Assembly (NCBI GenBank): GCA_000025185.1
Contig: CP001848.1
Coordinates: 3,780,001-3,812,000 of the forward strand
Reading direction: 5' to 3'
Source of the DNA: Pirellula staleyi DSM 6068
GTDB lineage: Bacteria > Planctomycetota > Planctomycetia > Pirellulales > Pirellulaceae
Length of the DNA: 32,000 nucleotides
The notes under the pieces are model-generated. The model was not told the DNA's origin. It made no database searches and saw only the letters and a program-made list of their open reading frames with translations. The position numbers were made by a program, and so were the translations under genes. Position 1 is the stretch's first letter. Each line of letters opens with the position of its first letter. Below are positions 11,889 through 27,679 of this stretch, in pieces.

Positions 11889-11994
11889 GTCAACTCAAAT
11901 GGGGAAATTCAAATCAGTGGCACTCGGAGCGACTGACGGGCAGAAGATCGATCTCTTCCGCCCGCAAGGTTTCCGCTGGTCGAGTGAGGCAGGA

Positions 11995-13800
11995 CTAGTG
12001 ATGCTCGACCTTCACCCGCTTGGCAGGGTCGGCAGGTGGCGGCTGAGTTTGAGGATAAAAGTCGGTATCGACTTCGGGAGATCCGTACTCATAAGGACCA
12101 CGATAAACAACAGGCTGGAAGTCAAAGTTGCCGTGTCCAGGAGGACTTGGCGCCATCCATTCCAGCGAGTTCGCACCCCAAGGGTTACGACCTACGGGAG
12201 TACCGTAGAAAATGCTGCGAATGAAATTGAATGCAAAAATCGCCTGACAGCTCACCATGCCAATGGCACAAATGGTCATGAACTGATTGAGTGGCAGGAG
12301 GTGACGGAAGGTTTCGTATTCGTAGGGATCTGCCAAACGACGTGGGAAACCAACAGCACCCAGGATATGCATCGTGAAAAACGTGCCGTTAAGGAAGATG
12401 AAGGTCAGGAAGAAGTGAACCTTGCCGAGATTCTCGTCCATCATCCGGCCGAACATCTTGGGGAACCAAAAGTAGATCGCTCCAAACACTGCCATCGCTG
12501 TTCCACCAAAGAGAACATAGTGGAAGTGGGCCACGATGAAGTAGGTGTCGTGGATGAAGATATCGACAGGGGTCGCGGCCATGAAGATGCCCGACAGACC
12601 ACCGATCACAAACATCGAGACGAACGACAGCGAGAACAGCATCGGAGTAGTGAACGAGATCTTGCCACCCCAGAGCGTACCGAGCCAGTTGAACACTTTC
12701 ACAGCGCTGGGGAGGGCGATCATCATCGTCGAGACCATGAATGTCATGCCGAGCATTGGATTCATGCCCGAGACGAACATATGGTGACCCCATACGATAA
12801 ATCCGAGGCCTGCAATTCCCGAAATCGAATACACCATCGGTTTGTAGCCGAACAGTGGTTTACGGGAGAAGCAAGCGAGGATGTCCGAGACCATTCCCAT
12901 CGCGGGAAGGATCATGATGTACACAGCAGGGTGCGAGTAGAACCAGAAAAGATGCTGCCACAGAATAGGCTGTCCGCCACCAGTAGCCATCTCCGAGTTG
13001 TTAACCTGCAAGCCTTCCGGCAGGAAGAAGCCGGTACCGATCATCCGATCGGTGAGCTGCATGAAGCCGGCGGCTGTGAGCACAGGAAGTGCAAACGCCT
13101 GCAGAATGGCCGTGATGAACATGCCCCAAATGGTCATGGGGAGGCGGAACATGGTGAGGCCAGGAGCACGCATCTGAATGATGGTGGTCATGTAGTTCAC
13201 CGAACCCATCATCGACGACACACCCACCCAAGTGATGCCGAGGAGCCACAGCGTTTGCGGCCAGTGGCTACCAGGCGCTGCATCCCAGACAACCGACAGA
13301 GGTGGATACGACGTCCAACCACCACCGGCACCATAAGGTGGCCAGAGGAAGCTCATGCCGATGCAGAAAAACGCGGGCCACATGAACCAGTAGCTGAGCA
13401 TGTTGAGTGTAGGGAACGCCATATCATCAGCGCCGATCATCAGCGGGATGAGATAGTTTCCAAATGCGCCAGCGAGAATCGGGATGATCACAAAAAAGAT
13501 CATCACGGTGGCATGCATGGTGAACAGGGTGGTGTAGAACTCCGGCGAGATCTGACCACCTTCCGCCGAGAAGAGCATCCGACCGATGATCGGCATGTCT
13601 GTCCAAGGCCACGCCAGCTGCCAGCGAATCCCCAGGGCGAGCAAACCGCCAACGAGGAACCACAGTAGCGTGGAGAAAAGGAACTGCAAACCAATGATTT
13701 TATGGTCGAGCGAAAAGACGTAAGTCCTTACGAATTCACCGACCGACATGCCTGCATCATGCCCCTTGGCATCATGGGCCCCAATAACTGTTGAGCTCAT
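11995..13800 (-). CDS. ctaD: Cytochrome c oxidase subunit I (haem-copper oxidase, A-type)
   Basis: Canonical HCO blocks: DHKIIGLQFLF, MIFFVIIPILAGAFGNYLIPLMIGADDMAFP, WFYSHPAVYIMILP (CuB His and cross-link Tyr), GFIVWGHHMF, FIHDTYFIVAHFHYVLFGG. Start ATG 13800 (MSSTVIGAH...) overlaps the subunit II stop as ATGA. Confidence 0.95.
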   Translation of the reverse strand: MSSTVIGAHDAKGHDAGMSVGEFVRTYVFSLDHKIIGLQFLFSTLLWFLVGGLLALGIRWQLAWPWTDMPIIGRMLFSAEGGQISPEFYTTLFTMHATVMIFFVIIPILAGAFGNYLIPLMIGADDMAFPTLNMLSYWFMWPAFFCIGMSFLWPPYGAGGGWTSYPPLSVVWDAAPGSHWPQTLWLLGITWVGVSSMMGSVNYMTTIIQMRAPGLTMFRLPMTIWGMFITAILQAFALPVLTAAGFMQLTDRMIGTGFFLPEGLQVNNSEMATGGGQPILWQHLFWFYSHPAVYIMILPAMGMVSDILACFSRKPLFGYKPMVYSISGIAGLGFIVWGHHMFVSGMNPMLGMTFMVSTMMIALPSAVKVFNWLGTLWGGKISFTTPMLFSLSFVSMFVIGGLSGIFMAATPVDIFIHDTYFIVAHFHYVLFGGTAMAVFGAIYFWFPKMFGRMMDENLGKVHFFLTFIFLNGTFFTMHILGAVGFPRRLADPYEYETFRHLLPLNQFMTICAIGMVSCQAIFAFNFIRSIFYGTPVGRNPWGANSLEWMAPSPPGHGNFDFQPVVYRGPYEYGSPEVDTDFYPQTQPPPADPAKRVKVEHH

Positions 13801-14606
13801 TCCCCTTCTCCCGACTCTGCAGTGAATTCTGCAACGTTCTGATCGCGGTATGCTTGAGCGAGCCACTCATCGAAGTCGGCTCGAGATTGAACAGTGATTC
13901 GGCCACGCATTTTGTAGTGACCCCAGCCGCAAAGTTCCGCACAAACGATGTCGTAGACACCGGTCTTGTTGGCCCGGAACCAGACGAATTGCTTCATGCC
14001 CGGAACAACGTCTTGCTTCAGACGAAGGTTGGGGAGGAAGAAGCTGTGGAGCACATCTTGGCTCTTAATAGCTAAAACGATTTCTTCATTCGCAGGGACA
14101 CGTAGTTCGTTAACAGTCAGGACATCGTCGGGGGTACCGACAACTCCATCAGCGCCAGCGTAACGAATCCGCCATTCAAACTGCCGTCCGGTAACTTCAG
14201 CGATGGCTGGCTTGGGGGAACCATCGGCGAGTTGTGGGCGTCGCATCTTGGCATCGGCCCAAGCGTTCATCTGGTAAATAGCGATGAAAAGCAGTGCAGC
14301 AGCCGGAATGATCGACCAGACCACTTCCAGGGTGTGGCTGCCGTGAGTGTATTCGATCGGCTTGGTGTTGGTGGCGACGTCGTACTTCCAGAGGAACCAG
14401 AAGAGCGCAACGCCGGTACCAACGAAAATGATCCCCGTGAGGTAGAGGATGAACATGAAGAGGTTGTCGATCACTTTACCGTGATCGTTGATGTTCTCGG
14501 GTAGCCAATGTCCTTGGAGAGGCCATAGGTCGGCCATCGCCCAGGCAAAGATGCCTACGCCGAGGATCGGAACCATCAAAAAGAACAGGCTCCAAAAACG
14601 TCCCAC
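13797..14606 (-). CDS. ctaC: Cytochrome c oxidase subunit II (CuA type, no fused cytochrome c domain)
   Basis: 269 aa, two N-terminal TM helices. CuA ligand pattern DVLHSFF...CAELCGWGHYKM. No CxxCH is present. GTG start at 14606 with AGGGAG 8 nt upstream. Confidence 0.9.
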   Translation of the reverse strand: MGRFWSLFFLMVPILGVGIFAWAMADLWPLQGHWLPENINDHGKVIDNLFMFILYLTGIIFVGTGVALFWFLWKYDVATNTKPIEYTHGSHTLEVVWSIIPAAALLFIAIYQMNAWADAKMRRPQLADGSPKPAIAEVTGRQFEWRIRYAGADGVVGTPDDVLTVNELRVPANEEIVLAIKSQDVLHSFFLPNLRLKQDVVPGMKQFVWFRANKTGVYDIVCAELCGWGHYKMRGRITVQSRADFDEWLAQAYRDQNVAEFTAESGEGE

Positions 14607-14697
14607 AGCTATACTCCCTACCCAGTCACTGGCGTCGTTTGATGCTTGTATGGTTGGTCACTCACCTCTAGCGAAGGAGCGACTTGATTTCGACTTT

Positions 14698-14715
14698 TGA
14701 ACGCTCGAGCGTTCA
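14698..14715. promoter_or_regulatory. Perfect 18-bp palindrome TGAACGCTCGAGCGTTCA between the dihaem cytochrome c gene and oxidase subunit II
   Basis: Verified base by base; it equals its own reverse complement. It starts 6 nt after the TAG of the cytochrome gene. No U-tract follows on the transcribed (minus) strand, so it is not a canonical intrinsic terminator. The function (RNA stem-loop or operator) is unresolved. Confidence 0.45.
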
Positions 14716-14720
14716 GTTCA

Positions 14721-15977
14721 CTACATTCGCTCGCGGGCGTTGATCGGATCTGCTTGTCGGGGATCACTGATCGATTCGTAAGGGAGCGACTGGACGTAGT
14801 TCACGATGTCCCAGATGTCGTTTTCAGTAAGACCCTTCGAGTTGGCGTCCCCTTCGATTTTCATCGAAGCTGCGGGCATCGGTGTTCCCTCGATCCCATT
14901 GCGAATCCGCCAGTAGATATCGAGGGGACGCATGCCGCCTCGGAAAACTCCTTGACGAAGGTTGCGTGGACGGATGTTGCGAGGTTCGGGAAGTCCCAGA
15001 GCGACATAATCCTGGATGGCAGCTGGATCGCTGGCGTCCATGAACTCTTTAGTCCATTCGTCGTAGTCGGTGAGCTGACCATCTCCCAGGGCCGAATCGC
15101 CGTGGCATTTTGCGCAGTTGGCAACCGCTCCGTAGAACAGTTCGCGACCACGTTTCTGAGACTCAGCTAGTTCAGCTTCGGTGGTTTCGGGGCGTGCACT
15201 GACAGGGGCTGATGTGAGCGATTCAGCCGAGGTTGCCCATGCGCTAACGATATCGGTGACAATCGTTTTCACGGCGTCGATCTGTTCGACGGCAGCAGCA
15301 CGCTCTTCAGCCGAAGACTTCTCGCCGGGTACGCTCACGAGGCGAGCATCAGGTTCGAGGTCGGCAGCATATTCCAGCAGTTTACGCTCCGTCTCGCCTC
15401 GAATGGCTAAGTACTTCACGTAGTGCACCAGCGATTCCACTTCCTGATCGGTGAGGAGCTTGAACGATGGCATGGCCGTTCCCGGAATACCTTCGAGCAA
15501 GATCTTCTTCAGGTCGTCGTGGGTAGGCTTGGTGCCCACCTTCGTCGATTTGAACTTGAACCACCCTTTGCGATAGTCGCGTGGGTAGGGGTTGAGGAAC
15601 GCAGCTGTTGGGCCCGCGCCGTCGCCGGTGACACCGTGGCAATGGGCGCAGTGTTCGCGGTAAAGACCTTCAGGGCGATTGAGTTCGTCGCTACCCACCT
15701 TGCCTGCCGACATTTTCAGCAGCGGCAAATTCATGACGGTTGCTGGATCGACATCCGCCAGTGCAGGGAGCGCTGGATCATCAGGCGTGCCGAAGAACGC
15801 CGCGAGTGTCAGGTCGATATCAGCCCGCTGTTCTTCTTTGAACTCGACTTCCTTCGCTTTTTCGACCTTCAAGGCATAGGTCTCATAGCGACGGAACTGC
15901 GGAGCGGGTGATCCGCAACCGGCGAAGGCAAAAGCCAACATCAGGCTGGCAGCGATACTAAGGCGCGTGGCACTCAT
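14721..15977 (-). CDS. Dihaem c-type cytochrome lipoprotein (CcoP/FixP-like class I domains)
   Basis: 418 aa. Lipoprotein-type signal ending AFAFAGC. Two CxxCH motifs: CAHCH (nt 15636-15650) and CAKCH (nt 15102-15116). Each is followed by a distal Met block (GIPGTAMPSF; GIEGTPMPAA). Confidence 0.85.
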   Translation of the reverse strand: MSATRLSIAASLMLAFAFAGCGSPAPQFRRYETYALKVEKAKEVEFKEEQRADIDLTLAAFFGTPDDPALPALADVDPATVMNLPLLKMSAGKVGSDELNRPEGLYREHCAHCHGVTGDGAGPTAAFLNPYPRDYRKGWFKFKSTKVGTKPTHDDLKKILLEGIPGTAMPSFKLLTDQEVESLVHYVKYLAIRGETERKLLEYAADLEPDARLVSVPGEKSSAEERAAAVEQIDAVKTIVTDIVSAWATSAESLTSAPVSARPETTEAELAESQKRGRELFYGAVANCAKCHGDSALGDGQLTDYDEWTKEFMDASDPAAIQDYVALGLPEPRNIRPRNLRQGVFRGGMRPLDIYWRIRNGIEGTPMPAASMKIEGDANSKGLTENDIWDIVNYVQSLPYESISDPRQADPINARERM

Positions 15978-16308
15978 GCTTCAGATGACCATCTTCAAGA
16001 GAACTGATCGGAGCAAACTCGTTCGCGAGGATGCCAGGATCGAGGACTCGAAATGTGCGATACGGTGCTATTTGTAAGGGGAGGGTGTCTGCTGTTACTC
16101 GGCCGACCACTCACCCGACTTGGTCGCAAGTCTCTAAATCATTTAACCGCAAGGATTTCACCAGCTACAACGTTGAAAACCCTGTTTGAACGAATTTGCC
16201 GAGCAGGTAACTTGCCTGACACTAGCGAACTATGAGGGAATCACTGCTTGCTGTGGAACTGCGAGTGTCGGGTGTTAATTAACGTCAGCGATCAAACCTG
16301 AGAAGCTA

Positions 16309-17250
16309 CTACTTGGTCACTAGTCCGGCATCGATCACGACGTTCATGTCGTGCACTTCGTCGGGCTGAAGGGTGACGGTGTAGGTACCTTTGCTGAACT
16401 TGGTGGGCGAACCATTGAGTTCGGCATTGCTCAGGAAACTGGCCGCTTCTTGCCAGATTTTGAATTCGAGGGGGACACCAGCAGGGACATTCGCAATCTC
16501 AAAAGTCCCATCGGGTTTGCTGACAGCGAAGTAAGGATTAGTGCGGATGATCATGCGAGCGGCCATCCAGGGATGGATGCTGCACGAAACGGCAAATGGC
16601 TCGTTCGATTCGCCACCTGGCTCGTACATGGCATAGCCGTTAGAGGCAATTGTTTGATTGAACTGCGATGCTTTGCCCGAAGCCTGAATGTTCGTGTTGT
16701 GACCGACAGGATCGCTGTTGAGGATTTTCAGTTTTTGCGTCGATCGCATCGCGAACACGTGGCTGAGGAACACGCATTCCTTCTGGTCGTACTCGAGGGT
16801 CGAATCGACAGTTGCCGCGTAGCTCTCGTGAACCCAGGCAGGATCGTCGACAGGGTATTTTTTGTTGTTGAGGTAGACGAGCACATCCTTGATGCCGCCA
16901 CTGGCAGGGTCGACGACAATTTCTTCGGCTAACACCGTCTTACCGCCCGGTGCACAAACCGCTTGATCGGAGCCGATGGTGAGCGTGCGGCGAGCGGGGG
17001 CCGAGCCGTTAAGCTTGAAAGTTCCTTTGATTGTGGCCCATCCGGTGGGTGTGGCGCTGGTCGTTGGAGCCGCTGCTTCCGTGGAGGCTGGACCTCCCAT
17101 CGATTTACGCAGGGCAACGACACTCGCCTCTTTAACGCTAGGGTTTGGGGCGACGTAACGCTGGCATCCGGCGAATCCGAACAGCGCGATGGCGATGATA
17201 GGCAACACTGCTGCCGACGATTGCTTCAGAGCCCACAAGCACACATTCAT
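16309..17250 (-). CDS. Cupredoxin-like lipoprotein (amicyanin-type C-x2-H-x2-M loop) with a C-terminal Ig-like/carboxypeptidase-regulatory-like beta-sandwich
   Basis: I start it at ATG 17250 (MNVCLWALKQSSAAVLPIIAIALFGFAGC, lipobox-like). Putative type-1 Cu ligands are His in SDPVGHN and CSIHPWM (nt 16564-16584). The tail FEIANVPAGVPLEFKIWQE resembles the family often annotated 'methylamine utilization protein'. Paralogue of 17400..18194. Confidence 0.7.
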   Translation of the reverse strand: MNVCLWALKQSSAAVLPIIAIALFGFAGCQRYVAPNPSVKEASVVALRKSMGGPASTEAAAPTTSATPTGWATIKGTFKLNGSAPARRTLTIGSDQAVCAPGGKTVLAEEIVVDPASGGIKDVLVYLNNKKYPVDDPAWVHESYAATVDSTLEYDQKECVFLSHVFAMRSTQKLKILNSDPVGHNTNIQASGKASQFNQTIASNGYAMYEPGGESNEPFAVSCSIHPWMAARMIIRTNPYFAVSKPDGTFEIANVPAGVPLEFKIWQEAASFLSNAELNGSPTKFSKGTYTVTLQPDEVHDMNVVIDAGLVTK

Positions 17251-17293
17251 TGCTGCTACTACTTTCCTGTCGTCGTTCAACTTCCACTGCCAC

Positions 17294-17319
17294 GAGTTGA
17301 TCGAACTGGCGATCAACTC
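17294..17319 (-). promoter_or_regulatory. Perfect 10-bp stem / 6-nt loop hairpin between the two cupredoxin genes
   Basis: GAGTTGATCG aactgg CGATCAACTC, verified pair by pair, 44 nt upstream of ATG 17250. A second 6-bp hairpin AGCACT tgtg AGTGCT lies at 17337..17352. Confidence 0.45.
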
Positions 17320-17399
17320 TTCATTCGTTCGCTCGGAGCACTTGTGAGTGCTGGGCGAGCGCTATTGGGATGATCACTAACCAACCGAGCAGGTCGGCA

Positions 17400-18194
17400 C
17401 TACTTGCGAAGTTTCTTGTCGATGGTCGAAGCAGGAACGACGAAGCTACCGAGGTCGTTCTCCCCCTTCTTCACGGTCACGCTCATGCGACCGCGTTTCC
17501 ATTCGACTTCCTTCGTCCCTTGCTTCACCTTGTCAACGTAGCCAGCTTTTTCTTGCCAAACGACGAAGTTCCAGGTGCCAGCAGGTACGTTCGAGATCAC
17601 CACTTCGCCAGCCTCGTTGCTGACACCAGCGTAGGGGTCGTCTTTCACGAGCAGCCAGCCGTTCATCCAGCCGTGGATGCTGCAGGTGAGCGGGCTAGGC
17701 TGCGTTTCAGCTTTAGCGAAGGGGTTCTTCTTCAGTTCACCCTTGGCTGGAATCAGTTCGTTGAACGAACCGTTGTTGAACAGATCACCCTTCACGTTGT
17801 GACCGATCGGATCGGGGTTGCCGAGGACCAGTTTTTGCGTGGTGCGGATCACAGCTACGTGGGGCTCATAGCGACAGCCGATGTTATCGACTTTCACTTC
17901 GCCAGTAGCGGTCTTTTCGTAATCGGGATGGACAGGAACTTTCTTGCCGACAGCTGGCAGGAGATAGACGACCACGTTCTGCAGGCCGCCATCTTTACCG
18001 ACAACCAGCGATTCGTCCTTCAGCATTTTCGGACCACAGAAAGCGACGTCCTTATCAGGGACGAGCTTCTTGGCGGCGAAGTCTTTGTCTTCGTAGCTGA
18101 ACTTGATTTTCACATTGCCCCAGTCCTGGGCGACTGCTGAACCGGCGGTCGCAAGCAATGCGACAACCAGACTGAGCGAAAAAAATCGTTTCAT
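17400..18194 (-). CDS. Cupredoxin-like periplasmic protein (amicyanin-type C-x2-H-x2-M loop), paralogue of 16309..17250
   Basis: Start ATG 18194 (MKRFFSLSLVVALLATAGSAVA, cleavable signal) with GGAG upstream. Putative ligands are His in PDPIGHN and CSIHGWM (nt 17664-17684). Tail VVISNVPAGTWNFVVWQE. The track's 46 extra N-terminal codons are rejected. Confidence 0.7.
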   Translation of the reverse strand: MKRFFSLSLVVALLATAGSAVAQDWGNVKIKFSYEDKDFAAKKLVPDKDVAFCGPKMLKDESLVVGKDGGLQNVVVYLLPAVGKKVPVHPDYEKTATGEVKVDNIGCRYEPHVAVIRTTQKLVLGNPDPIGHNVKGDLFNNGSFNELIPAKGELKKNPFAKAETQPSPLTCSIHGWMNGWLLVKDDPYAGVSNEAGEVVISNVPAGTWNFVVWQEKAGYVDKVKQGTKEVEWKRGRMSVTVKKGENDLGSFVVPASTIDKKLRK

Positions 18195-18467
18195 GAGCCA
18201 AACTCCTTCGAGAGGCTGGAGCCGATCGTGGTCGGCCGATTGAGGGGGGAGGTTTTGCTCGCTCGCGAGAGATGCCAAAAGTTTGACACATTTCTCTCGC
18301 CGGCTAATCGGCAAAACCTGATGTACAGACACCTTATTTACTATACCGGGGCTGGCAGTCTCCAGCCACCTCCTTGCGGGAAGTGGCAGCTGACTACCGG
18401 CCCACGGCGGGCAGATTCAAACGAATGATTCAAACACGAAATTGAGCGAAAACGGACAGCGAGGTGA

Positions 18468-21400
18468 TTACTCAGCCGGTGCTGGAGCCGGCGTTGCTTC
18501 GATCGGAGCCACAGGCTGTTCTCCCGGAGGAGCTTCACCGGCAGGTGGCGCCGCACCACTGGCAGCTTCGACGAGCGGCGAAATCTTCGCCGCACCCTTC
18601 GTGTAGCGATCGTAATTCATCAGCAAGTCGACCAGACCATCCACTTGATCCACACTCGTACCGTGGTAGAGGTTTTGCGAAACACCACCGTCGAACTTCA
18701 CGTTCGGGTTGTACGGAATGTTCACCGGCATCGAAGTGTATGGCAGGATTGACTTCGGATTCGCAATCCAGCGTCGCAGGTAATCGGGACGGAGGCGGCG
18801 ATAGACGTCGGCAAGATTAGGAGCTCGTGCTCGCTGCGAACCGACAGGGCTGAAGTCGGCAACGATGTGACACTTCACGCAGTAGTTCTTGTCGACCACG
18901 ATCTTCATGGCATCATCAAATCGCGTCGAAGCTGGCAGACCTTCCTTCTGCAGGAGCTCGGCATACTTGGCTTCGGCTGAGGCGAGGAGATCGTCGTTTC
19001 GCGACTCGGTGGCAACGTACGGATAGGTAGCATTGTCGCGAGCTGCAAAGTAGTTCACCAAAGCCGTCGCTTCGTCGTCCGACATGTTGAACTTCGGCAT
19101 GCGGAGGAACGAGGCTGGGCGAATCGGATAGGGCTCGAGCAAGAAGTCGTGCAACCATCCAGTTTGGACCTTGTTGCCTTCTCCCATCAGTGGCGGTGGT
19201 AGCCAGCCCATCGCTTCTGCACCGGATGCAGAAGGGTTGGCTTGCTGTTCGTAAGCAGTCACCTTCGGCAGCAGGTAACGCGTCAGGGCGCCACCATTGG
19301 CCGGATAGCTACTTTCGACCCGAGCAAACGGAATCTGAACCGATGATCCACCGGTTTGGTAGGTCGAGCCATCAATCATCGCTGGTTGGTAGAGATCGAT
19401 AGAGTAGGAGACCGTGCGAGGATCGAATTCATCCTCGTTCGTCACCCCCACACCATCCATATCAATCACGATCGGCAGACCATCGTCCTTGGCGGTCGGA
19501 GGTAGACCCTTCACCTTGCTGGTGAGCAAGTTGCGCGAATCGGGCTTAGCCTGGGCTTCCAGTTCCTTGGTGCCGAAGTGAGCCTTCAGGAACGGGAAGT
19601 CCTTGAATTCACCTTGCGGGCCGTAGTCGCCAGCAGCGTAGGCAATATTCCAGGTTTCTGCTTCCAGAATATGGCAGCCACCGCAGTTGTACTTCTCGAG
19701 GACTTGCTGACCCTTGATGAGCGCTTCTTTGCGTGCATCGGGTGTGAAGATGTACTTCTCACGTGGAGGATCGGCAACCAACCCTAGGACAAACGTCATG
19801 ATCGCTTCCCGTTCCTCGACTGAAATCGGGAACAGAGGCATGCGAAGCCGTTCGTTGTACTTCTTATTGATCGTTTTCTGGAAGTCGTAGCTGCGTGGTT
19901 CCTTCAGCTTCTGATGAATGAAGCCGATGCGGTTATGCGCTTCAAGTTGGTGGAGATAAAACTCTTCATCTGCTTCACTACCGGCAGGACCAGACGAACT
20001 TGGCCAATTGTGGGCGTGCGAGTGATCACCCTCTGCATGGGCATCATGCGCGGCATCGGCCTTCAAGCTCGTATTGGTCGTGGCAACGGATGGAGCAGGA
20101 GTTTCTTCCTTGGCTTTCGGCTTGTGGCTTGGGCCGTGGTGCTCGAGGTAGTGCGTGATATGTTCGAAGGCGAGCTTCGAAGGATCTTTACGACCCCAGT
20201 CGGCCAGACCGGTTCCGATCGGCTTCGCATCTTCGAAGCCTGGGATGTCGTGGCAGCCGTAGCAGCCGTACTTCGAAATCGTCTTCATGCCGACATAGCG
20301 AAGCTTGTCTTTGTCGGTCAGCTTGCCACCATCGCGAACGATCAGTTCCTTCTCAGCACCCTTGAGTTCGCTTTCGATCTCGGCTGGGATGCCGTTCTGC
20401 AAGTATTCCTCGGCCTGATCTTTGTAGAAGGCATCGAGCAGATAGTCCTTCACATGCTCGTCGAGAGCTTGCTTGTTCTCTTTGGTAAGCGTGGTATCGG
20501 TGATACTCCCTTCAGCTACTGGCGTCCAATTTTCGAGCTTATTGGAGAGCAGGTAGGCTGTGATGTCATCAACAGGATCGAAAACCTTTCCTGCTGCATC
20601 CTTTTCAGGAGTCAGGTAGAGGTTAGGCATCACGGTGCGAACGTGATACTTCGTCGGTTCCTTGATCCAGCTGTAGAGCCACTCGCGACCTTGCGGATTG
20701 CGAGCGGGATCAAACTTGCTGCCGATGCCGGTCAGATCGGGACCTTGAACGATCTCACCTGGCTTCCGGTATTTCTCGATCGTGGGGAAGTCGCCGTGAT
20801 TGTGGCAGGCCAAGCAACCACGCACTTCGAACTGCTGTTTACCACGAGCAATCTTCTCTTCGTCGCTCCACTCACTGATCCCTTCGGGGCGGGGGAGTGG
20901 CTCGAACTCTTGATCGAAGGCCGAGAAATATTCCATCATGCCGAGAATTTCGATCGGCTCACGTACTTGAGCCATGTGATCGTCGGCATCGAGATGATCC
21001 CACAACTGGAAGAAGCGAGGCATGCGCGTACTGGGTCGGAATGCTTGTGGGTTCCAGAGCCAGTCGTACAGGAACGGACGATCGAGTTTGGCGCCGAGGT
21101 ATCGCAAGCTGGGGCCTGATTTGCGGAGGTCGCCAGGAGCTTCAATATCCTTCAGCATGCCCGCCAGCGTGTGAATCTCGGCGGGGAAGAGTGGCGTTTG
21201 GCTAACGGCATCTTCTTCGATCATCAGACGCAGGCGTGTACGTACTTCGTTGTCTTCGGGGTGGTGCACCACGTGATCGGTCGACTTGGCCAGTTCTTGA
21301 AGCTGGGCAAGTTCACCAGCAGCGGTGTTCTTGGCTGATGTGACCTCAGCCGGAGGTTCGCCAGCGGCGCTGGCGGTGTCGAAGGCAGTCGCGGCAGCGT

Positions 21401-23438
21401 TAAATTTCTCTTTAGCAGCAGCGAGCGGAGCCTTGATGTATGGCTGCATCGACTGGGCAACGGCAAAGTAGCCAGGTTCAAGACGCATGTCGGGACCAAC
21501 CCGGCGGGTGGGGCCGTCGTAGCCATTCACTTCGTGACAGCCGTAACAGCCGTACTTGCGAATGACGTGGTAACCGTGCACGAGCGAAGGTGCTGGTGGA
21601 TCGGGAAATCGCTCGCTCGCTTCGAGTTCGACCACTTCGTGGTGGCACTTGAGGCAGGAGGCTTCGGCAAATCGCTTGGGGAACATTGGATAAATCCAAT
21701 GGGCGTTGTCGAACCAGCCGTACTCGTTCATCCAACGTTCGGCGTCGAGGCTGTTGTTGGGGGTGTGCGACGCCCATTTGAAATCGGTGGCCGAGCCTTG
21801 GCCGTCGTGGCAGACGGTGCAAGCAAACGTAGAAAGCTTGTGCGGGCTGGAGTCGCTTACGAACAGGTCGAGGCGTGGGTGCGACGTGAACGGACTGGGA
21901 AGACCACGGCGAATCGTGACAGTGATCGGTTTACCCGAATTCGAGGCGTCGATCAGGTAAGATTCCGCACGACGCGCATCCAGGATGCGATCGCCGTTAA
22001 TCGCCTGAATCACATCTCCCAGCACGATACCGGGGAGATTCTTGAACAGTTCAACGCTTTCTTTGCTGCCGGGACCGATCGCGGCGGCGACACGGATATC
22101 TTCACCGAGCTTATCGCCGGTTGGTTCATTACCCACGGTAACAGCACGAGCTGCGGCCGACTTGGGCTTCACGAACTTCACGGTCACATCGTCGCGATTG
22201 ATCAGACCTTCCGCAGCGAGGCGAATACCGAGGTATTGCTCGAGCGTGTAAGGGAGCGGGTTACCTTCCGCATCGGTCTTCGGTGGGCCAAGTTCTTCGG
22301 GCGTCGGAGGGGTGATGACCAGATCGAAGGTCGTTTCCTTCACGAATGCTTGAGTGGTTGGCATGCCGGGGACCGACTTGGCCATCGATTGATGGCAAGT
22401 GGTGCAGCGGTCGTAGCGCTTGACCTTCTTGAAGTTGTAGTCTTGCTCGAGCCCTTCGCTCCATGCGGTCTCGATTTTACGAGGCGAACCGAAGGCATCG
22501 ATGATGGGAAACGTCAGAACCTTTTTGCCCAGGAAGGGGAAGGTTCCCACGAAGTAGGTTTCACGCTTTTCCGCGTAGGTCTTTTCTAGGCGAACGAGAC
22601 CAGCTCGGCTGTCGTCGAGTTTCTTCTGTGCGGCAGCAATGTCGGCGGTCATCGCCTTGATGGTGCCGTCGAGATTGGCGCGGTGGGTCGAGAGGGTTTG
22701 AGTGGCTTCGCGGAGCGCGTCACGTTCAGCTTCAAGCTTGCGGACGGTCTCGAGTGCCGTTTTCATCGTTGCGGCATTGTTGTCGCGAACGGCAATGTCG
22801 TAGTTGGCTTTCGCAGCATCGAGGAAGCCGTTCTTCCCCTTTTGATTGGTGGCAGCCTGGGTTTCGCGAATTTTAGCGCTGCGAGCATAACCCTCGAATT
22901 CGACAATCAAAGCGGCGCGAGCATCACCCGCCTGCTTTTCAGCAGCGAGGGCGGCAGCTTGGGCCTTCGCCGCAGCTTGCTGGGCAGCTACGTCGCTAGG
23001 AGCAGCTTCCGCCTCTTTAATGGCGGCAGTGGCAGCTTCTCGCAGCGGAACTGCGGCTTCGACGAGTTTTTTGATTTCGGCAGCTTCGGCATCAATCCAG
23101 GCAACATCGACGGTCGTCTTGCGATAAGCGGCGTCGTTTTCGAGTTCCGCTTTGAACTGTTCGATGAGCGCTGCAGGGATCTCTGTGGCAGAGACGCGCG
23201 ACAATTCCTCTTCCAGGTTCGCGTGTTCTTCCATGGCGTCGGCAGTTTCGAACTGCTCTTGCCGCCAAGCATTCAGTTTCAGATCGGCTTCGAGTGCCTT
23301 GGGTTGCACATGTTTCCAAGGCCGATCGTGGTCTCGATAGAACATCAAGACGGTAACGATTGCCAAGATAACGCCGGAAACCGCAAATAAGCGATTCAGC
23401 AAACCTTGATCACGCCAAGTTGATTCCGTTGCGGGCAT
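18468..23438 (-). CDS. Membrane-anchored octahaem c-type cytochrome (1656 aa) with an N-terminal coiled coil and a PDZ-like insert; likely the c-type subunit of the adjacent Rieske/cyt b complex
   Basis: Eight CxxCH motifs verified by back-translation: CTTCH 22392-22406, CTVCH 21807-21821, CLKCH 21642-21656, CYGCH 21534-21548, CLACH 20802-20816, CYGCH 20250-20264, CGGCH 19671-19685, CVKCH 18867-18881. One N-terminal TM (LFAVSGVILAIVTVLMF). Heptad-like Ala/Glu/Lys-rich region at aa 45-295. PDZ-like segment NLPGIVLGDVIQAINGDRILD...ITVTIRRG. Five class-I-like modules have W..P....MP distal-Met blocks. ATG with GGAG upstream. Confidence 0.9.
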   Translation of the reverse strand: MPATESTWRDQGLLNRLFAVSGVILAIVTVLMFYRDHDRPWKHVQPKALEADLKLNAWRQEQFETADAMEEHANLEEELSRVSATEIPAALIEQFKAELENDAAYRKTTVDVAWIDAEAAEIKKLVEAAVPLREAATAAIKEAEAAPSDVAAQQAAAKAQAAALAAEKQAGDARAALIVEFEGYARSAKIRETQAATNQKGKNGFLDAAKANYDIAVRDNNAATMKTALETVRKLEAERDALREATQTLSTHRANLDGTIKAMTADIAAAQKKLDDSRAGLVRLEKTYAEKRETYFVGTFPFLGKKVLTFPIIDAFGSPRKIETAWSEGLEQDYNFKKVKRYDRCTTCHQSMAKSVPGMPTTQAFVKETTFDLVITPPTPEELGPPKTDAEGNPLPYTLEQYLGIRLAAEGLINRDDVTVKFVKPKSAAARAVTVGNEPTGDKLGEDIRVAAAIGPGSKESVELFKNLPGIVLGDVIQAINGDRILDARRAESYLIDASNSGKPITVTIRRGLPSPFTSHPRLDLFVSDSSPHKLSTFACTVCHDGQGSATDFKWASHTPNNSLDAERWMNEYGWFDNAHWIYPMFPKRFAEASCLKCHHEVVELEASERFPDPPAPSLVHGYHVIRKYGCYGCHEVNGYDGPTRRVGPDMRLEPGYFAVAQSMQPYIKAPLAAAKEKFNAAATAFDTASAAGEPPAEVTSAKNTAAGELAQLQELAKSTDHVVHHPEDNEVRTRLRLMIEEDAVSQTPLFPAEIHTLAGMLKDIEAPGDLRKSGPSLRYLGAKLDRPFLYDWLWNPQAFRPSTRMPRFFQLWDHLDADDHMAQVREPIEILGMMEYFSAFDQEFEPLPRPEGISEWSDEEKIARGKQQFEVRGCLACHNHGDFPTIEKYRKPGEIVQGPDLTGIGSKFDPARNPQGREWLYSWIKEPTKYHVRTVMPNLYLTPEKDAAGKVFDPVDDITAYLLSNKLENWTPVAEGSITDTTLTKENKQALDEHVKDYLLDAFYKDQAEEYLQNGIPAEIESELKGAEKELIVRDGGKLTDKDKLRYVGMKTISKYGCYGCHDIPGFEDAKPIGTGLADWGRKDPSKLAFEHITHYLEHHGPSHKPKAKEETPAPSVATTNTSLKADAAHDAHAEGDHSHAHNWPSSSGPAGSEADEEFYLHQLEAHNRIGFIHQKLKEPRSYDFQKTINKKYNERLRMPLFPISVEEREAIMTFVLGLVADPPREKYIFTPDARKEALIKGQQVLEKYNCGGCHILEAETWNIAYAAGDYGPQGEFKDFPFLKAHFGTKELEAQAKPDSRNLLTSKVKGLPPTAKDDGLPIVIDMDGVGVTNEDEFDPRTVSYSIDLYQPAMIDGSTYQTGGSSVQIPFARVESSYPANGGALTRYLLPKVTAYEQQANPSASGAEAMGWLPPPLMGEGNKVQTGWLHDFLLEPYPIRPASFLRMPKFNMSDDEATALVNYFAARDNATYPYVATESRNDDLLASAEAKYAELLQKEGLPASTRFDDAMKIVVDKNYCVKCHIVADFSPVGSQRARAPNLADVYRRLRPDYLRRWIANPKSILPYTSMPVNIPYNPNVKFDGGVSQNLYHGTSVDQVDGLVDLLMNYDRYTKGAAKISPLVEAASGAAPPAGEAPPGEQPVAPIEATPAPAPAE

Positions 23439-23538
23439 TGCATCCGTCTCCGCGAGCGAGGCACTGTTTTGCGAGATCCCAGGGGTTCAATCACCCCCTG
23501 ATCGTCGCGACTACTGACCAGCCACAATCACTCGAGGC

Positions 23539-24921
23539 TTAAAAGTTGAGTACGTATTCAGGTAAATCGATGAAGTATTTCAGGTTAAACAGCCAGCGGC
23601 AGACCATCTTCAGAGGAAGTAGGCCCATCCACAGGAGCAAGTTGGTCATCACCATGTAGCGAATGAATCCCATCTTCATGAACATGTTCTGGAACATCTT
23701 CGAGCAGACCACCAGGGCTGGTGGAATGACGGCAAAGTATCCAATCAGCAGCATGATGCCGGGGAATTCTCGGAGCATGGCATAGATGAGTTTGATTCCG
23801 AAACTGGCCCCTTCAGGAGCGAGTGGGCGATGGCTTCGCAGCGCATCGATCCAGAAGAACTCCGACAGATTTTTATTGTTGAGGGCTTCGACTTTGTGGG
23901 TGTCCCAAATTTCATAGGGACCGAAGAAGTTCCAGTTCGGACCGCGAAGGAATGTTCCCATCACGATCAGCGTGATCCAGAGGACCAGGAAGCCAAACTG
24001 GAAGGTGATGTAAGCGAACTTCCGTTCTTCGATCGTGTAGTAGCCGTTGCCAGCTTTGTTGTAGTCGATGTAGGGAATGGCCATCAGACCAGCCACCACC
24101 ATGCTTGGGAGGACCACGCCTGCCATCCACGGATCATAGTACACCAGCATCTCTTGCAGACCGAGGAAGTACCAAGGGGCCTTCGAGGGGTTGGGGGTTT
24201 TCACAGCCGAGGCTGGTTCTTCGAGGGGCGCTTGGAGCGAGATGGCCCAGAAGAGCATGAACGCAGTGAGGGCGACCATGCAAATCAGTTCGGTGTAAAC
24301 CAGATCGGGCCAGACGAGCACTTTCTCGCTATCGAGCTTCTCGAGGGGTTCGAGACCTTGCTTGCGACGTTCGTCGTTGATCACAGCTCGGTAGGCGCTA
24401 AGCCAGGTGAAGAACGCGAGCAAGAAGATCAAACCGACGATCGGCACGTTATCGGGCTTCACCACGATCGAGGCAAAGTTTTGGTCGGTGAGCGACATAC
24501 CAAGCAGCAGCATGGAGAGGTTCAGCCCGGTCCAAGCGACGGCAGGTTGCACGAAGAATTTGCGACCGACAAACAGGACCGAAAGGAAAGCGAGCGAACC
24601 CAGCGTGTAGAACGTCGGGTTCATCAGGCTGTTGATGGTGGCGCGAACTGCCATCGGGAGAGAAATGATCTGCATCCATTTCTCATCGCCGCTAAACGCG
24701 AGGGGCGAGAGGAACAGGAAGAAAATCGAAACGCAAAGCCAAATGAGTTCCGCACCGAACGGCATTTCGATAATCGGAACTTTGCCGATCACTTTGGTCT
24801 TGTTCGACTTCCACAGGATGAAAGCAGCAATGCCGTTGATCACCGCAATCAGCAGATAGTACGACCCCAAGAAGCCGGAGATCTGCTTCAAGAAGATGTC
24901 ATAGGGAACGTGGCCGTGCAT
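23539..24921 (-). CDS. Cytochrome b C-terminal domain / b6f subunit-IV-like protein, extended to 460 aa by extra TM helices at both ends
   Basis: The core VWPDLVYTELICMVALTAFMLFWAISLQAPLEEPASAVKTPNPSKAPWYFLGLQEMLVYY aligns to the PetD / cyt b helix E-ef loop region including the Qo PEWY position (here APWY, nt 24169-24180). About 190 aa of additional hydrophobic N-terminal sequence and about 160 aa of C-terminal sequence flank it. Confidence 0.85.
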   Translation of the reverse strand: MHGHVPYDIFLKQISGFLGSYYLLIAVINGIAAFILWKSNKTKVIGKVPIIEMPFGAELIWLCVSIFFLFLSPLAFSGDEKWMQIISLPMAVRATINSLMNPTFYTLGSLAFLSVLFVGRKFFVQPAVAWTGLNLSMLLLGMSLTDQNFASIVVKPDNVPIVGLIFLLAFFTWLSAYRAVINDERRKQGLEPLEKLDSEKVLVWPDLVYTELICMVALTAFMLFWAISLQAPLEEPASAVKTPNPSKAPWYFLGLQEMLVYYDPWMAGVVLPSMVVAGLMAIPYIDYNKAGNGYYTIEERKFAYITFQFGFLVLWITLIVMGTFLRGPNWNFFGPYEIWDTHKVEALNNKNLSEFFWIDALRSHRPLAPEGASFGIKLIYAMLREFPGIMLLIGYFAVIPPALVVCSKMFQNMFMKMGFIRYMVMTNLLLWMGLLPLKMVCRWLFNLKYFIDLPEYVLNF

Positions 24922-24997
24922 CGCTACTGCTCTATCCGTGAGAAAACAAGTTGGAGGTCAAAATCGAGCTGCCAAGCATCAACAAAACACTCTCGAT

Positions 24998-25774
24998 TTA
25001 GAGAGGTCCGCTGATACCACCGTCTTTACGAACACGCCAGAAGTGGATGGCCAAGAGCAGCGAAACTGCCAGTGGAATGGCCACACAGTGGAGCACGTAG
25101 AAGCGGTTCAACGTCTCTTCACCCACAAAGCGGGCACCGAGCAAACCAAATCGAGCATCGGATGCGTTGGTGATCATCGCGATGCCGTCGATATTTAAGA
25201 ACTGAGCACCGGGACCTTCGTAACCAAGGATCGGTGTCGCGCGAGCCATGTTCGAACCGACGGTGATGGCCCATACCGCCAATTGATCCCACGGGAGCAA
25301 GTAGCCGGTGAACGACATCAGCAGCGTGAGCAAGAGCAAGACGACACCGACCACCCAGTTGAATTCTCGCGGCGGTTTGTAGCTGCCGGTGAGGAACACG
25401 CGATACATGTGGAGCCAGACGGTGATCACCATGGCGTGAGCACCCCAGCGATGAAGTTCGCGGAGAATGCCCATCGAGGTGACATCGCGAAGAGCCAGGA
25501 TGTCGTTGTACGCCCATTCGATCACGGGACGGTAGTAGAACATCAACAAAACGCCGGTGACCGTTTCGACCAGAAACAGGAAGAAGGTCACGCCACCCAT
25601 GCACCACGTGAAGCTGAGGGCGATCCCTTGCTTCTTGATCGAGACGGGGTGGAGATGGAGGAAGAAGTTGGTGAGCATCACCACAATGCGATTGCGGCGA
25701 TCGACCGGCATCGGGTGCCGGAAAATGCTCTTCCAAATCTGTGATTCGCGAATGATTTCGCTGAGCGATGCCAT
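24998..25774 (-). CDS. Cytochrome b6-like protein (cytochrome b N-terminal, four-helix haem-binding domain)
   Basis: 258 aa. Paired haem-ligand His blocks: [21 protein letters not shown] (helix B) and [28 protein letters not shown] (helix D). Conserved [16 protein letters not shown]. Confidence 0.9.
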
Positions 25775-25962
25775 GACTTTTAAGGGCCTTCCCTGCGGAC
25801 TTAATTTACAAGCGACAAAGGCAACTACTGACTTCGTCGATTCTGGTTAACTCAAAAAACGCTAGTTTGGAAGTTTCTGAGCCCAGCTTGCTGGCTGAAC
25901 TCAGTTACCGCAGCACTTGCAGAATCGCGGGTGCTGCAGGAGTCTCTCGCAGTTTAGGTGGA

Positions 25963-27054
25963 TTAGACCGGGACGAACGAGGAGGGGTCTTTCCATTGGC
26001 CGAGTTCTTGGTTGAAAGTTCGGCTCTTATCGACTTCAAGCTGACCGTCGTCAGCGAGACTAATGGCATAGCGTTCGAGTGGTCGCGGGGCGGGACCTTC
26101 GAAGTTCACCCCGTCTTTGTAGAAACCACTACCGTGGCATGGGCATTTGAACTTCTGTTCCCCTTCGAGCCAGTTCGGAGTGCAACCCAGGTGGGTGCAA
26201 ACGGCTTTCAGTGCATACAGCATCGGCTGGCCTTCGAATTCATAACGCACAATCCAGACACCGAATTGTGGGATGAACTTCGTTTCGACCTGGCCGGGAC
26301 CAAAGTTGCTGGGGAAGCCGACTTTGAATCGAGTTGGGGGCTCGATCAGGATGTTCGGGAACATGAAGCGGGCAAGTCCCAGCAGCCACATCACTTGCGT
26401 AGCGGCGAGCGACATAAACCCGACTGCCAGTGACGAGCCAAACATGCCACCGACAGCAGCGAGGCTGGCGGCTAGGAAGGTGCGACGCGAGGGATCGTCG
26501 CCAGCGGCAGCTTGCTTCGGCTGAGCGTAAGCCGGCTTGGCCGGCATCGGTGGAACTTCCAGCTTTTTCTTCGCGGGAGTTTCGTCTGGCTTGGCTTTCG
26601 CAGCGAGTTCCGACTTCGAAACGGGGCCGGGCTTGGCACCTTTGCGAACAGCGGCCAGGATGCTTGCGGTGTCTTTGGGGCCTGACTCTTTGGCAGGCTC
26701 TTTCGTGGCAACTTCAGCGGCTGGTTTGGCTGCTGCAGCTGGCTTGGGAGCAGCAGGTTTTTCAGCTTTAGGGGCCGGGGCAGCAGCGGCTGCGGGGGCA
26801 TCCCCCTTTTTGGCGCGGGCAGCGGCCAGAATGTCGGCCATGCTCATCCCTGCACCACCCTTGGGTGCTGCTTTCACAGGTGCTGAAGCCGCTGCCGATG
26901 CTGCAGGTTCGCTCGCAGCTGCAGTCGGTTCGCTTGGAGCAGGTGCGGCCGGAGCCTCAGGCTCGGGTGTAGAGGCAGCTGGGGCAGGGGAATCCGCTTT
27001 CTTCCCGCCACGTGCTGCTGCCAGAATTTCCTCGACCGACATTTTCTTGGCCAT
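25963..27054 (-). CDS. Rieske [2Fe-2S] protein with a 185-aa Ala/Pro/Lys-rich N-terminal extension ahead of the twin-arginine signal anchor
   Basis: Cluster-binding boxes CTHLGC and CPCHGS (nt 26128-26199). Twin-arginine motif SRRTFL (nt 26473-26490) followed by a hydrophobic anchor. Residues 1-185 are low complexity with three ILAAxR-type repeats. Confidence 0.9.
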   Translation of the reverse strand: MAKKMSVEEILAAARGGKKADSPAPAASTPEPEAPAAPAPSEPTAAASEPAASAAASAPVKAAPKGGAGMSMADILAAARAKKGDAPAAAAAPAPKAEKPAAPKPAAAAKPAAEVATKEPAKESGPKDTASILAAVRKGAKPGPVSKSELAAKAKPDETPAKKKLEVPPMPAKPAYAQPKQAAAGDDPSRRTFLAASLAAVGGMFGSSLAVGFMSLAATQVMWLLGLARFMFPNILIEPPTRFKVGFPSNFGPGQVETKFIPQFGVWIVRYEFEGQPMLYALKAVCTHLGCTPNWLEGEQKFKCPCHGSGFYKDGVNFEGPAPRPLERYAISLADDGQLEVDKSRTFNQELGQWKDPSSFVPV

Positions 27055-27250
27055 AAGCCGATCATCCGTCCCGAGAGACGCTCGCTAGTGGGTCAATCCC
27101 CAACTCGGAGACGTGCCATCACGCCACTGCTGGCGTTGGGCTCGTCGCTCAGGCGGCAACCTCCATGCGTACCTAACATCTTGTTAGGCCATGCTTTAGC
27201 TGCCGAGAGAGGGTGGCTGGGGTGATTGTGATATTTTTCACGAACCTTGA

Positions 27251-27315
27251 CTTACGTATCCTTACGCAAAGCCATACCGATGTCAACTACCCTTCCCGCA
27301 AAACCTTACGTAAAG
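27251..27315. promoter_or_regulatory. Three CTTACG(T/C)A boxes in the divergent Rieske-purD intergenic region
   Basis: CTTACGTA at 27251, CTTACGCA at 27261, CTTACGTA at 27305. The extended 12-mers CCTTACGCAAAG (27260-27271) and CCTTACGTAAAG (27304-27315) differ at one base and are 44 bp apart start to start. They lie about 200-260 bp upstream of the Rieske ATG. Confidence 0.35.
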
Positions 27316-27679
27316 GTAACCACATCCGAAATAGCCGCTCCACACCAAAAATTCGGTCAGTCAGCAGTCGCTGAAAAACGCTCGTTCAGGTGGTGTTGGT
27401 GCTGGTTATGTGCCAGCCTGCTTGTCGGTGCCGTGTGATTTCCCTGTTGTCGCATCGCAGGCCCGTCCCTGCAAGTTACTCTCCGCCGGAATGGTCGATT
27501 CCGTGGACCGTGGGGCGATGCTAGTGAAGCACCGGGCGAAACTCCGACCTGATTATCGCCGGGCAACTTCTAGAAAACGGTCCGCTGCTTTATATTCGAA
27601 CCCTTCTGAAGCGCTGATCTCCCGGCTACACGGTGTTCGTGGCCAACCACGCTAGCGAGTGAAGACTGGTAACGAAGTC

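Follow-up and report, generated by a model that had tools for sequence, protein, structure and literature searches.

A conserved octahaem cytochrome c with a PDZ domain, encoded between the Rieske/cytochrome b and aa3 oxidase genes of Pirellula staleyi and other Planctomycetota

The Locus and Its Octahaem Gene

The DNA considered here is a window of 32,000 nucleotides from Pirellula staleyi DSM 6068 (contig CP001848.1, positions 3,780,001 to 3,812,000), and the gene under study (18468–23438 of the window) encodes a c-type cytochrome of 1656 residues with eight CxxCH haem sites and a PDZ domain. This octahaem gene is part of a cluster encoded entirely on the minus strand, as are all features described below unless stated otherwise, in the order Rieske iron–sulfur protein, cytochrome b, subunit IV, octahaem cytochrome, two proteins designated X and Y, dihaem cytochrome c and the genes of an aa3-type oxidase. 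The open reading frame (ORF) starts with ATG, and its product is 100% identical to P. staleyi ADB17599.1 (UniRef100_D2R8Q8), which carries the database label “PDZ/DHR/GLGF domain protein” and, in RefSeq, the label “hypothetical protein” with a length of 1625 residues. Full-text searches of the literature, whose coverage is incomplete, found no description of this protein. A first-pass annotation, made from the sequence alone, had described an ORF of this length with eight CxxCH sites and one N-terminal transmembrane (TM) helix, located 100 nt downstream of a subunit IV-like gene, and each of these features was recovered, the gap to the upstream gene (23539–24921) being exactly 100 nt.

The conserved N-terminus (residues 1–35; 23334–23438) includes the single membrane anchor, which was located by hydropathy. 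Its majority-residue frequency is 0.67, and residues M1, P2, A3, T7, H15, F18 and T29 are at least 90% conserved in the homologue alignment. The RefSeq model (WP_123784761.1, 1625 residues) begins 31 codons downstream of the 1656-residue start, omitting 23346–23438 of the window, and would thus cut off this conserved segment together with the sole TM helix. The longer form is favored because the N-terminus, MPATE.TWR, is conserved in the family. A single hydrophobic segment is present, at residues ~13–35; the charges flanking it are not decisive for orientation, and the haem-bearing part is placed on the periplasmic side from the need for haem attachment.

The anchor is followed by a poorly conserved, Ala-, Glu- and Lys-rich helical “stalk” (residues 41–300; 22539–23318), delineated by its composition, its conservation and weak matches to CCDC22_CC and myosin-rod models. 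Its majority-residue frequency is 0.40. The stalk had been read as about 250 residues of heptad-like helix, and this reading stands for the helix-like composition of the whole segment (67% A/E/K/Q/L/R/D, with four prolines); a 3.5-residue periodicity or weak coiled-coil matches were found only within residues ~198–291, so that the stalk is possibly coiled coil in part. Two antisense ORFs are located inside the octahaem gene on the plus strand (19914–21119, 401 residues, and 21534–22589, 351 residues). Nothing supports their status as genes, and they are probably a by-product of base composition.

Haem Sites and Cytochrome Modules

The eight CxxCH motifs are located at residues 345, 540, 595, 631, 875, 1059, 1252 and 1520, and all 16 cysteines of the protein fall inside them. 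In shuffled versions of the same sequence, a mean of 0.002 such motifs is expected. None of the eight varies in the alignments of 51 and of 83 homologues, the latter sharing 38–84% identity, and exactly eight are present in 57 of 58 complete orthologous ORFs. The same two alignments contain eight further invariant positions which qualify as distal haem ligands: 1) three histidines, H520, H533 and H558, located just before and between haem sites 2 and 3, and 2) five Met-Pro pairs, at M806, M937, M1200, M1447 and M1570. This correspondence of eight candidate ligands to eight haems, a matter of counting and not of structure, suggests that haems 1–3 would be bis-His and haems 4–8 of the His/Met class-I type. 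The first-pass annotation had proposed five class-I-like modules with distal W..P....MP blocks; all five Met-Pro pairs are indeed invariant, and the full W-x3-P-x8-MP pattern was found at three of them.

Several of these modules appear to be related to each other. As had been noted, two near-identical cores are present, KYGCYGCHE at residues 628–636 and KYGCYGCHD at residues 1056–1064, and the internal duplication that they implied is supported by the comparison of modules 4 and 6, which are 55% identical over a stretch of 20 residues (E 2e-6). For the distal half of module 4, matches to modules 5 and 8 were obtained as well (E ~5e-5 to 9e-5). A series of repeated class-I-like modules of common origin thus seems a fair description of the protein.

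Haem site 1 (C345-x2-C348-H349) lies in a conserved segment (residues 301–364; 22347–22538; conservation 0.70), within which Pfam gives a weak PSCyt3 match at residues 321–353. Beyond the PDZ domain, haem sites 2, 3 and 4 (C540, C595 and C631) are grouped in what appears to be a compact multihaem core (residues 516–660; 21459–21893), delineated by its motifs and conservation. This core is among the best-conserved regions of the protein, and Pfam and NCBIfam return only sub-threshold c7, c3 and MtrC-like matches across it. Module 4 is interrupted by a variable insert (residues 661–765; 21144–21458; conservation 0.32), which AlphaFold2 (AF2) models as confident helices; alignment and conservation place its distal half, with W793-x3-P797-x8-M806-P807, at residues 766–850 (20889–21143).

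Module 5 (residues 855–970, with C875 and M937; 20529–20876) is the most readily recognized. A class-I cytochrome c is detected at residues 863–965 both by Pfam (Cytochrom_C, E 4e-13) and by a SoxX-like NCBIfam model (TIGR04485, E 8e-19), and Foldseek retrieved SoxX (1h32_B). An identity as SoxX was rejected: although above its cut-off of 61, the TIGR04485 score of 68 bits is a sum over three stretches from different modules, and there are no Sox genes nearby. The match is read as a resemblance of class-I fold and not as SoxX function. Modules 6 and 7 were defined by alignment, AF2 and conservation. In module 6 (residues 1046–1235, with C1059 and M1200; 19734–20303), the predicted domain is broken by a disordered insert rich in His, Asp and Glu (residues 1096–1160; 19959–20153), which has a majority-residue frequency of 0.29. 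This insert contains nine histidines in 64 residues, a composition kept in 49 of 51 homologues while its sequence is not, and it may be a metal-binding loop. Module 7 (residues 1236–1470, with C1252 and M1447; 19029–19733) has a beta-rich insert of ~120 residues. Module 8 (residues 1506–1615, with C1520 and W1557-x3-P1561-x8-M1570-P1571; 18594–18923) was delineated by a weak Pfam match to Cytochrome_CBB3, by alignment and by AF2.

The haem modules are conserved at majority-residue frequencies of 0.62–0.84, and the C-terminal tail at 0.27. Constraint thus sits on the haem modules while the stalk and the inserts vary freely, a distribution which favors the role as a c-type cytochrome partner proposed below. 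The AF2 model of the C-terminal half (residues 850–1625) is confident, with a predicted local distance difference test score (pLDDT) of 82 and a predicted template modeling score of 0.76; among structures in the PDB, Foldseek aligned it to single class-I domains only (SoxX, CcoO and NorC, E>0.1). Sequence searches found no solved relative of the protein, and the family profile retrieved only PDZ domains and chance-level cytochrome matches from the PDB.

The PDZ Domain and Its Candidate Ligands

Between haem sites 1 and 2, residues 365–515 (21894–22346) correspond to a PDZ domain with a variable insert of ~40 residues. The Pfam PDZ_2 model matches the P. staleyi sequence weakly (E 0.017, 15.9 bits against a cut-off of 27). 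Several homologues have precomputed matches to PF13180 or PF17820, and the family profile detects PDZ domains among PDB structures (site-2 protease and DegQ, E 4e-4). The AF2 model of the segment is confident (pLDDT >85), and the 50 best Foldseek matches in the PDB are all PDZ domains (probability 1.0, TM-scores of 0.6–0.75 on the target). Modeling thereby confirmed the PDZ fold which had earlier been proposed as PDZ-like. The carboxylate-binding loop of the GLGF type, [YLF]-G404-[LIVF]-R-[LF], is conserved, and G404 and G411 are invariant.

The C-terminal tails of the proteins encoded in the cluster were compared. The Rieske protein ends in S-[FY]-[VI]-x-[VA]-COOH, conserved in 61–68 of 69 sequences at positions -4, -3, -2 and 0. 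The Pfam and NCBIfam envelopes end at residues ~329–343 of its 363 residues, leaving an extension of ~20 residues past the Rieske fold. By its sequence, this tail has the form of a class-II-type PDZ ligand, and it would lie on the side of the membrane required for such binding. A second conserved C-terminus is that of subunit IV, PEY[FL]LNF, with N at position -1 in 79 of 79 sequences and a probably periplasmic location; no conservation was seen in the tails of the octahaem protein, X, Y, the dihaem protein or COX2. The PDZ domain is therefore probably best regarded as a putative clamp for the C-terminal tail of a partner. The best candidate ligand would be the 20-residue Rieske extension, whose capture could keep the haem chain beside the mobile Rieske head.

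Family Distribution and Conserved Gene Order

One genome per GTDB species was scanned, and at least 564 species genomes were found to carry a relative of the octahaem protein. The best 80 loci and the one designated L001 gave 81 loci for examination, which come from different planctomycete species and span 39–99% identity. More than 120 full-length homologues of 1500–1870 residues were collected (38–99% identity), all from Pirellulales or other Planctomycetota and none informatively named. An exhaustive search of 1.84 billion representatives returned 872 clusters at 50% identity (E<=1e-30), with lengths of mostly 1300–1980 residues, and all family members whose taxonomy was examined belong to Planctomycetota.

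The octahaem gene is invariably linked both to the Rieske/cytochrome b (bc) genes and to the aa3 genes. The order Rieske, cytochrome b, subunit IV, octahaem protein, X, Y, dihaem cytochrome c, COX2, COX1, CtaA, CtaB, COX3, COX4 is kept in 81 of 81 loci as far as each contig extends. The homologues are clearly not, as a rule, encoded apart from the bc genes: the octahaem gene adjoins its upstream genes in all 79 loci with upstream sequence, the other two of the 81 beginning inside the gene. Seven loci have no cytochrome b match, and all seven are cut by a contig end within 1.5 kb upstream of the octahaem gene. From the stop of subunit IV to the octahaem start, the gap has a median of 54 nt (range 3–129, n=54). 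The first-pass annotation, which covered the upstream half of the cluster only, had placed the gene in a bc context; the actual context is a combined bc and aa3 cluster.

Several metagenome-assembled genomes labeled “Candidatus Kuenenia” (loci L047, L050, L067, L074 and L075) or “Chitinophaga” (L065) also carry a complete aerobic bc–octahaem–aa3 cluster, at ~40% identity to P. staleyi. These labels are probably wrong.

The Rieske/Cytochrome b Core

The three genes upstream of the octahaem gene were assigned by profiles and motifs. The Rieske iron–sulfur protein (363 residues; 25963–27054), for which the alignment of its tail was also used, contains the boxes CTHLGC and CPCHGSGFY and a twin-arginine translocation (TAT) motif at residue 189. 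Its N-terminus is a 185-residue extension rich in Ala, Pro and Lys, with three “ILAA(A/V)R” repeats before the internal twin-arginine motif (SRRTFL, residue 189); an alternative start near M170 would yield a normal TAT signal. The next gene (24998–25774) encodes a protein of 258 residues which corresponds to the cytochrome b6-like N-terminal half of a split cytochrome b and contains the haem-ci motif WCMGG (PMC4122944; PMC3509893). The subunit IV-like protein (460 residues; 23539–24921) carries the Qo motif APWY and is predicted to have ~10 TM helices: four to five extra helices precede, and two follow, its three-helix core. No gene of the cluster matches a cytochrome c1 or f profile in Pfam or NCBIfam, in agreement with the earlier statement that no conventional c1 or f is present.

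On the basis of the split cytochrome b, the APWY and WCMGG motifs and the Rieske boxes, this core can be assigned to the “APWY clade” of Rieske/cytochrome b complexes (Kao and Hunte; PMC4122944). The best NCBIfam models are ExtP and ExtQ, with scores below their equivalog cut-offs (258.9 against 290 and 58.9 against 150). This clade has been noted to include Planctomycetes; none of its members has been characterized, and operation in reverse was proposed in 2014 (Kao and Hunte; PMC4122944). P. staleyi itself had already been listed among the species with a split cytochrome b carrying the haem-ci cysteine (Baymann et al.; PMC3509893). Rieske box II is here CPCHGSGF, of the “SF” type, which has been associated with potentials of ~200–230 mV (PMC3509893); such a potential would be compatible with a menaquinol-oxidizing enzyme.

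Periplasmic Carriers and the aa3 Oxidase

The octahaem protein is one of four periplasmic carriers encoded in the cluster. Proteins X (17400–18194) and Y (16309–17250), identified by profile and by ligand alignment, have no Pfam or NCBIfam assignment. X, which carries a Sec signal, appears to be a secreted type-1 copper protein resembling amicyanin; it includes a C-terminal beta domain and belongs to an unannotated family. Y is a lipoprotein paralogue of X, with a lipobox, the same His/Cys/His/Met copper ligands and likewise a C-terminal beta domain. A profile built from 29 orthologues matches amicyanin (2gb2_A, E 0.0012) over residues 13–104 of 105 with the four ligands aligned, and the pattern His...Cys-x2-His-x2-Met is invariant in 137 of 137 sequences. 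Both proteins can thus be described as amicyanin-like cupredoxins with putative copper binding, and they are kept in every locus between the octahaem and dihaem cytochrome genes.

The fourth carrier is a lipoprotein dihaem cytochrome c of 418 residues (14721–15977), with two class-I domains and a lipobox, whose gene lies 114 nt upstream of COX2. It scores 29.5 bits against the actinobacterial QcrC model (bc1_QcrC_actin), for which the cut-off is 200. Among solved structures it is closest to 6h5l_B (E 4e-23), an anammox (Kuenenia) “conserved hypothetical cytochrome”, and this match hints at a planctomycete-wide cytochrome family. With regard to membrane attachment, the octahaem protein is tethered by its TM helix and Y and the dihaem protein by their lipoboxes, X being the only untethered carrier. 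This suggests a largely hard-wired chain.

The aa3-type haem–copper oxidase and haem A genes, assigned by profiles, form a block at 7631–14606, which is composed of COX2 (13797–14606), COX1 (11995–13800), CtaA (10740–11888), CtaB (9838–10743), COX3 (8253–9875) and COX4 (7631–8152). COX3 has 540 residues, including an insert of ~280 residues between TM3 and TM4 which is rich in Ala, Glu, Lys and Thr and coiled-coil-like; its orthologues also have an insert (ORFs of mostly 312–492 residues). A pairing of the ~260-residue octahaem stalk with this insert was considered and dropped for lack of co-variation in length, since the two lengths are not correlated across 30 loci (Spearman 0.26, p 0.16). 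Past COX4, the region 4527–7625 encodes an ABC ATPase, an ABC-2 permease, a SCO1/SenC copper chaperone and a DUF420 protein, which probably serve oxidase and copper biogenesis.

Comparison With Known Electron Transfer Systems

Cytochromes c1 and f are the obvious terms of comparison. Like them, the octahaem protein is encoded right after cytochrome b and subunit IV and is a membrane-anchored, periplasmic c-type cytochrome which is presumed to accept electrons from the Rieske protein. In contrast, it has eight haems instead of one, an N- instead of a C-terminal anchor, ~6–7 times the size, and a PDZ domain. Membership of either family was rejected: the protein has no match to Pfam Cytochrom_C1 or Apocytochr_F at E<=0.1 and none in NCBIfam, and with the model of the C-terminal half Foldseek returned c1 chains (7rja_D, 3cwb_D and 6hu9_D) only at E>1 and probabilities of at most 0.33.

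The obligate bcc–aa3 supercomplex of Actinobacteria, in which QcrC is a dihaem cytochrome cc, is similar in its linked bc and aa3 genes, its menaquinol chain and its hard-wired logic from Rieske to CuA without a soluble cytochrome c. It differs in having an unsplit QcrB with PDWY, whereas the cytochrome b is here split and b6-like with the ci motif and APWY, and in having one dihaem subunit where the present cluster encodes eight haems, two cupredoxins and a dihaem protein. The octahaem protein has no match to NCBIfam bc1_QcrC_actin and was not considered a QcrC. Alternative complex III, with its pentahaem ActA and monohaem ActE, shares an anchored multihaem chain of bis-His and His/Met haems leading quinol electrons to an adjacent aa3 oxidase. 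Its core is of the molybdopterin family (ActBCDF), unlike the Rieske/cytochrome b Q-cycle core found here, and a relationship to ActA was discarded, the only match being at chance level (6btm_A, E 0.4 over 29 profile positions). With both of these systems, the resemblance is one of logic only.

The core encoded here, with APWY and WCMGG, belongs with the APWY complexes of other phyla (such as those of the Geobacter ExtOPQ-type genes) and with the Rieske/cytochrome b complexes of anammox bacteria, which have multihaem subunits. Those systems are involved in metal or selenite reduction or in anammox, while the context is here that of an aerobic aa3 oxidase. Unusual multihaem cytochromes are known partners of such complexes, and none of these complexes has been characterized biochemically (PMC4122944). 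Within the Ext and anammox systems examined, the octahaem-PDZ protein was not found, the only similarity being a weak match of module 5 to ExtS (E 6e-4).

The combination of a PDZ domain with a multihaem cytochrome had been called unusual. It is indeed rare; it is not unprecedented, as PDZ domains are fused to c-type haem sites in MamP and MamE of magnetotactic bacteria (PMC3971196). These proteins are likewise membrane-anchored, with PDZ and CxxCH sites on the periplasmic side (PMC3971196), but their haems are carried by minimal bis-His magnetochrome units of ~20 residues and serve iron redox chemistry in the magnetosome, whereas the octahaem protein has class-I and c7-like modules and belongs to a respiratory cluster. 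A magnetochrome identity was rejected, since the Pfam scan of the protein gave no magnetochrome match.

Proposed Role and Alternatives

We propose, with moderate confidence, that the octahaem protein serves an APWY-clade, menaquinol-oxidizing Rieske/cytochrome b complex as its c-type cytochrome and wires this complex to the aa3 oxidase. It would then be part of a respiratory module specific to planctomycetes, and most likely the electron wire in the main respiratory chain of the Pirellula-type members of this group. The b6f-like complex, composed of the Rieske protein, the split cytochrome b with its haem-ci cysteine and the ~10-TM subunit IV, would oxidize menaquinol. Electrons from the Rieske [2Fe-2S] cluster would then be transferred directly to the octahaem protein, held by its one N-terminal helix in the cytoplasmic membrane with its haem domains in the periplasm, and would travel along the eight haems, three predicted to be bis-His (1–3) and five in His/Met class-I modules. 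They would presumably exit to the two cupredoxins and/or to the lipoprotein dihaem cytochrome c and from there reach CuA of the aa3 oxidase. The octahaem protein had previously been singled out as the best candidate for the electron exit wire of the complex. Its invariant linkage to the bc genes agrees with this view, which has to be modified insofar as two cupredoxins and a dihaem cytochrome c are also encoded and the protein would not be the only exit. Forward operation, from quinol to oxygen, is favored because the core is invariably joined to a complete aa3 cluster in aerobic planctomycetes, which argues for this direction.

Several points weigh against this proposal. The physical association of the octahaem protein with the Rieske/cytochrome b complex is deduced from gene context, and a scan of 7500–27400 for promoters and terminators gave counts at or below shuffle expectation, uninformative on operon structure. 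With three other periplasmic carriers in the same cluster, a path from Rieske to CuA does not a priori require the octahaem protein; in Actinobacteria, a dihaem cytochrome suffices for this path. A low potential is usual for bis-His haems, which is awkward downstream of a Rieske cluster at ~+200 mV. Unlike the anchor of c1 or f, that of the octahaem protein is at the N-terminus, with ~300 residues between it and the first haem, and the AF2 model of residues 296–860 is poor around haems 1–4 (pLDDT <50), as expected for a prediction made without haem cofactors. As for the clamp, the conservation of the Rieske tail could reflect a role in structure only, and the conserved, probably periplasmic C-terminus of subunit IV is an alternative candidate ligand. 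Finally, APWY-type complexes have been proposed to run in reverse (Kao and Hunte; PMC4122944).

This last proposal bears on an alternative that we regard as unlikely, in which the octahaem protein is an electron-collecting hub for periplasmic dehydrogenases or cytochrome-domain proteins and feeds either the aa3 oxidase or, backwards through the APWY complex, the quinone pool, instead of conducting the usual forward flux from the Rieske cluster. Proteins with “planctomycete cytochrome c” domains are numerous in planctomycetes, and the weak PSCyt3 match near haem site 1 would be in line with such partners. The variety of the modules (SoxX-, CcoO- and NorC-like), the PDZ domain as a docking site and the large surface inserts would also suit several partners, and reverse operation with input on the high-potential side, as proposed for the clade, fits a hub (Kao and Hunte; PMC4122944). 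However, the cluster is universally joined to a complete aa3 oxidase with its biogenesis genes, which points to a chain from quinol to O2, no dehydrogenase gene is conserved in it, and there is no obvious reason why P. staleyi, an aerobic heterotroph, should need reverse electron flow.

It is similarly improbable that the dihaem cytochrome c is the functional equivalent of c1, leading electrons from Rieske to CuA as QcrC does in the actinobacterial bcc–aa3 system, with the octahaem protein as an accessory which buffers electrons, acts as a bc–aa3 scaffold through its stalk and PDZ domain, or forms a side branch. The dihaem cytochrome is kept in the cluster as strictly as the octahaem protein; the proximity of its gene to COX2, its two class-I domains, its lipobox tether and its weak QcrC match are all in keeping with such a function, and many-haem proteins can serve as capacitors. 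The QcrC score is nevertheless far below threshold, and the closest solved relative is a soluble-type cytochrome. Moreover, three genes lie between the dihaem gene and the bc genes, while the octahaem gene directly follows that of subunit IV, and the invariance of eight haem sites and of eight distal ligands would be unnecessary in a pure scaffold. That the ORF encodes no functional cytochrome, its motifs being due to chance, to a pseudogene or to a mis-called ORF, is suggested only by the labels “hypothetical protein” and “PDZ domain protein” and can be dismissed, being excluded by full-length conservation over hundreds of species, by class-I cytochrome c profile and fold matches and by eight motifs invariant in 83 sequences where ~0.002 are expected.

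The proposed partnership with the Rieske/cytochrome b complex can be extended, as a speculative possibility which we hold to be rather doubtful, to a fully hard-wired megacomplex specific to planctomycetes, with the octahaem-PDZ protein as its backbone. Electrons would pass from an APWY-type Rieske/cytochrome b dimer containing haem ci through eight haems, two type-1 coppers and two further haems to the aa3 oxidase with no diffusible carrier, the PDZ domain leashing the mobile Rieske head by its C-terminal tail. If true, such an assembly would represent a new architecture for the coupling of complexes III and IV and the first functional assignment for the APWY clade, as a forward, aerobic and not a reverse enzyme.

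Significance

In almost every respiratory or photosynthetic chain, a Rieske/cytochrome b complex has a central place, and the third, c-type subunit of these complexes is the one most often replaced in evolution. The system described here is best described as a Rieske/cytochrome b complex with an unprecedented octahaem-PDZ cytochrome, encoded in a strictly conserved bc–cupredoxin–cytochrome–aa3 cluster. No paradigm is overturned by this finding. It does reveal gaps in annotation, as the octahaem protein goes by the labels “hypothetical” or “PDZ domain protein”, the start chosen in RefSeq leaves out its anchor, and the two cupredoxins have no family. The octahaem family is real, very widespread and uncharacterized: an environmentally abundant lineage, Pirellulales and their relatives, has an unstudied 180-kDa octahaem-PDZ protein in the position of the c-type subunit. 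This provides a first functional context for the APWY clade, and P. staleyi DSM 6068, a cultured organism, offers access to what is possibly a new mode of coupling between complexes III and IV.

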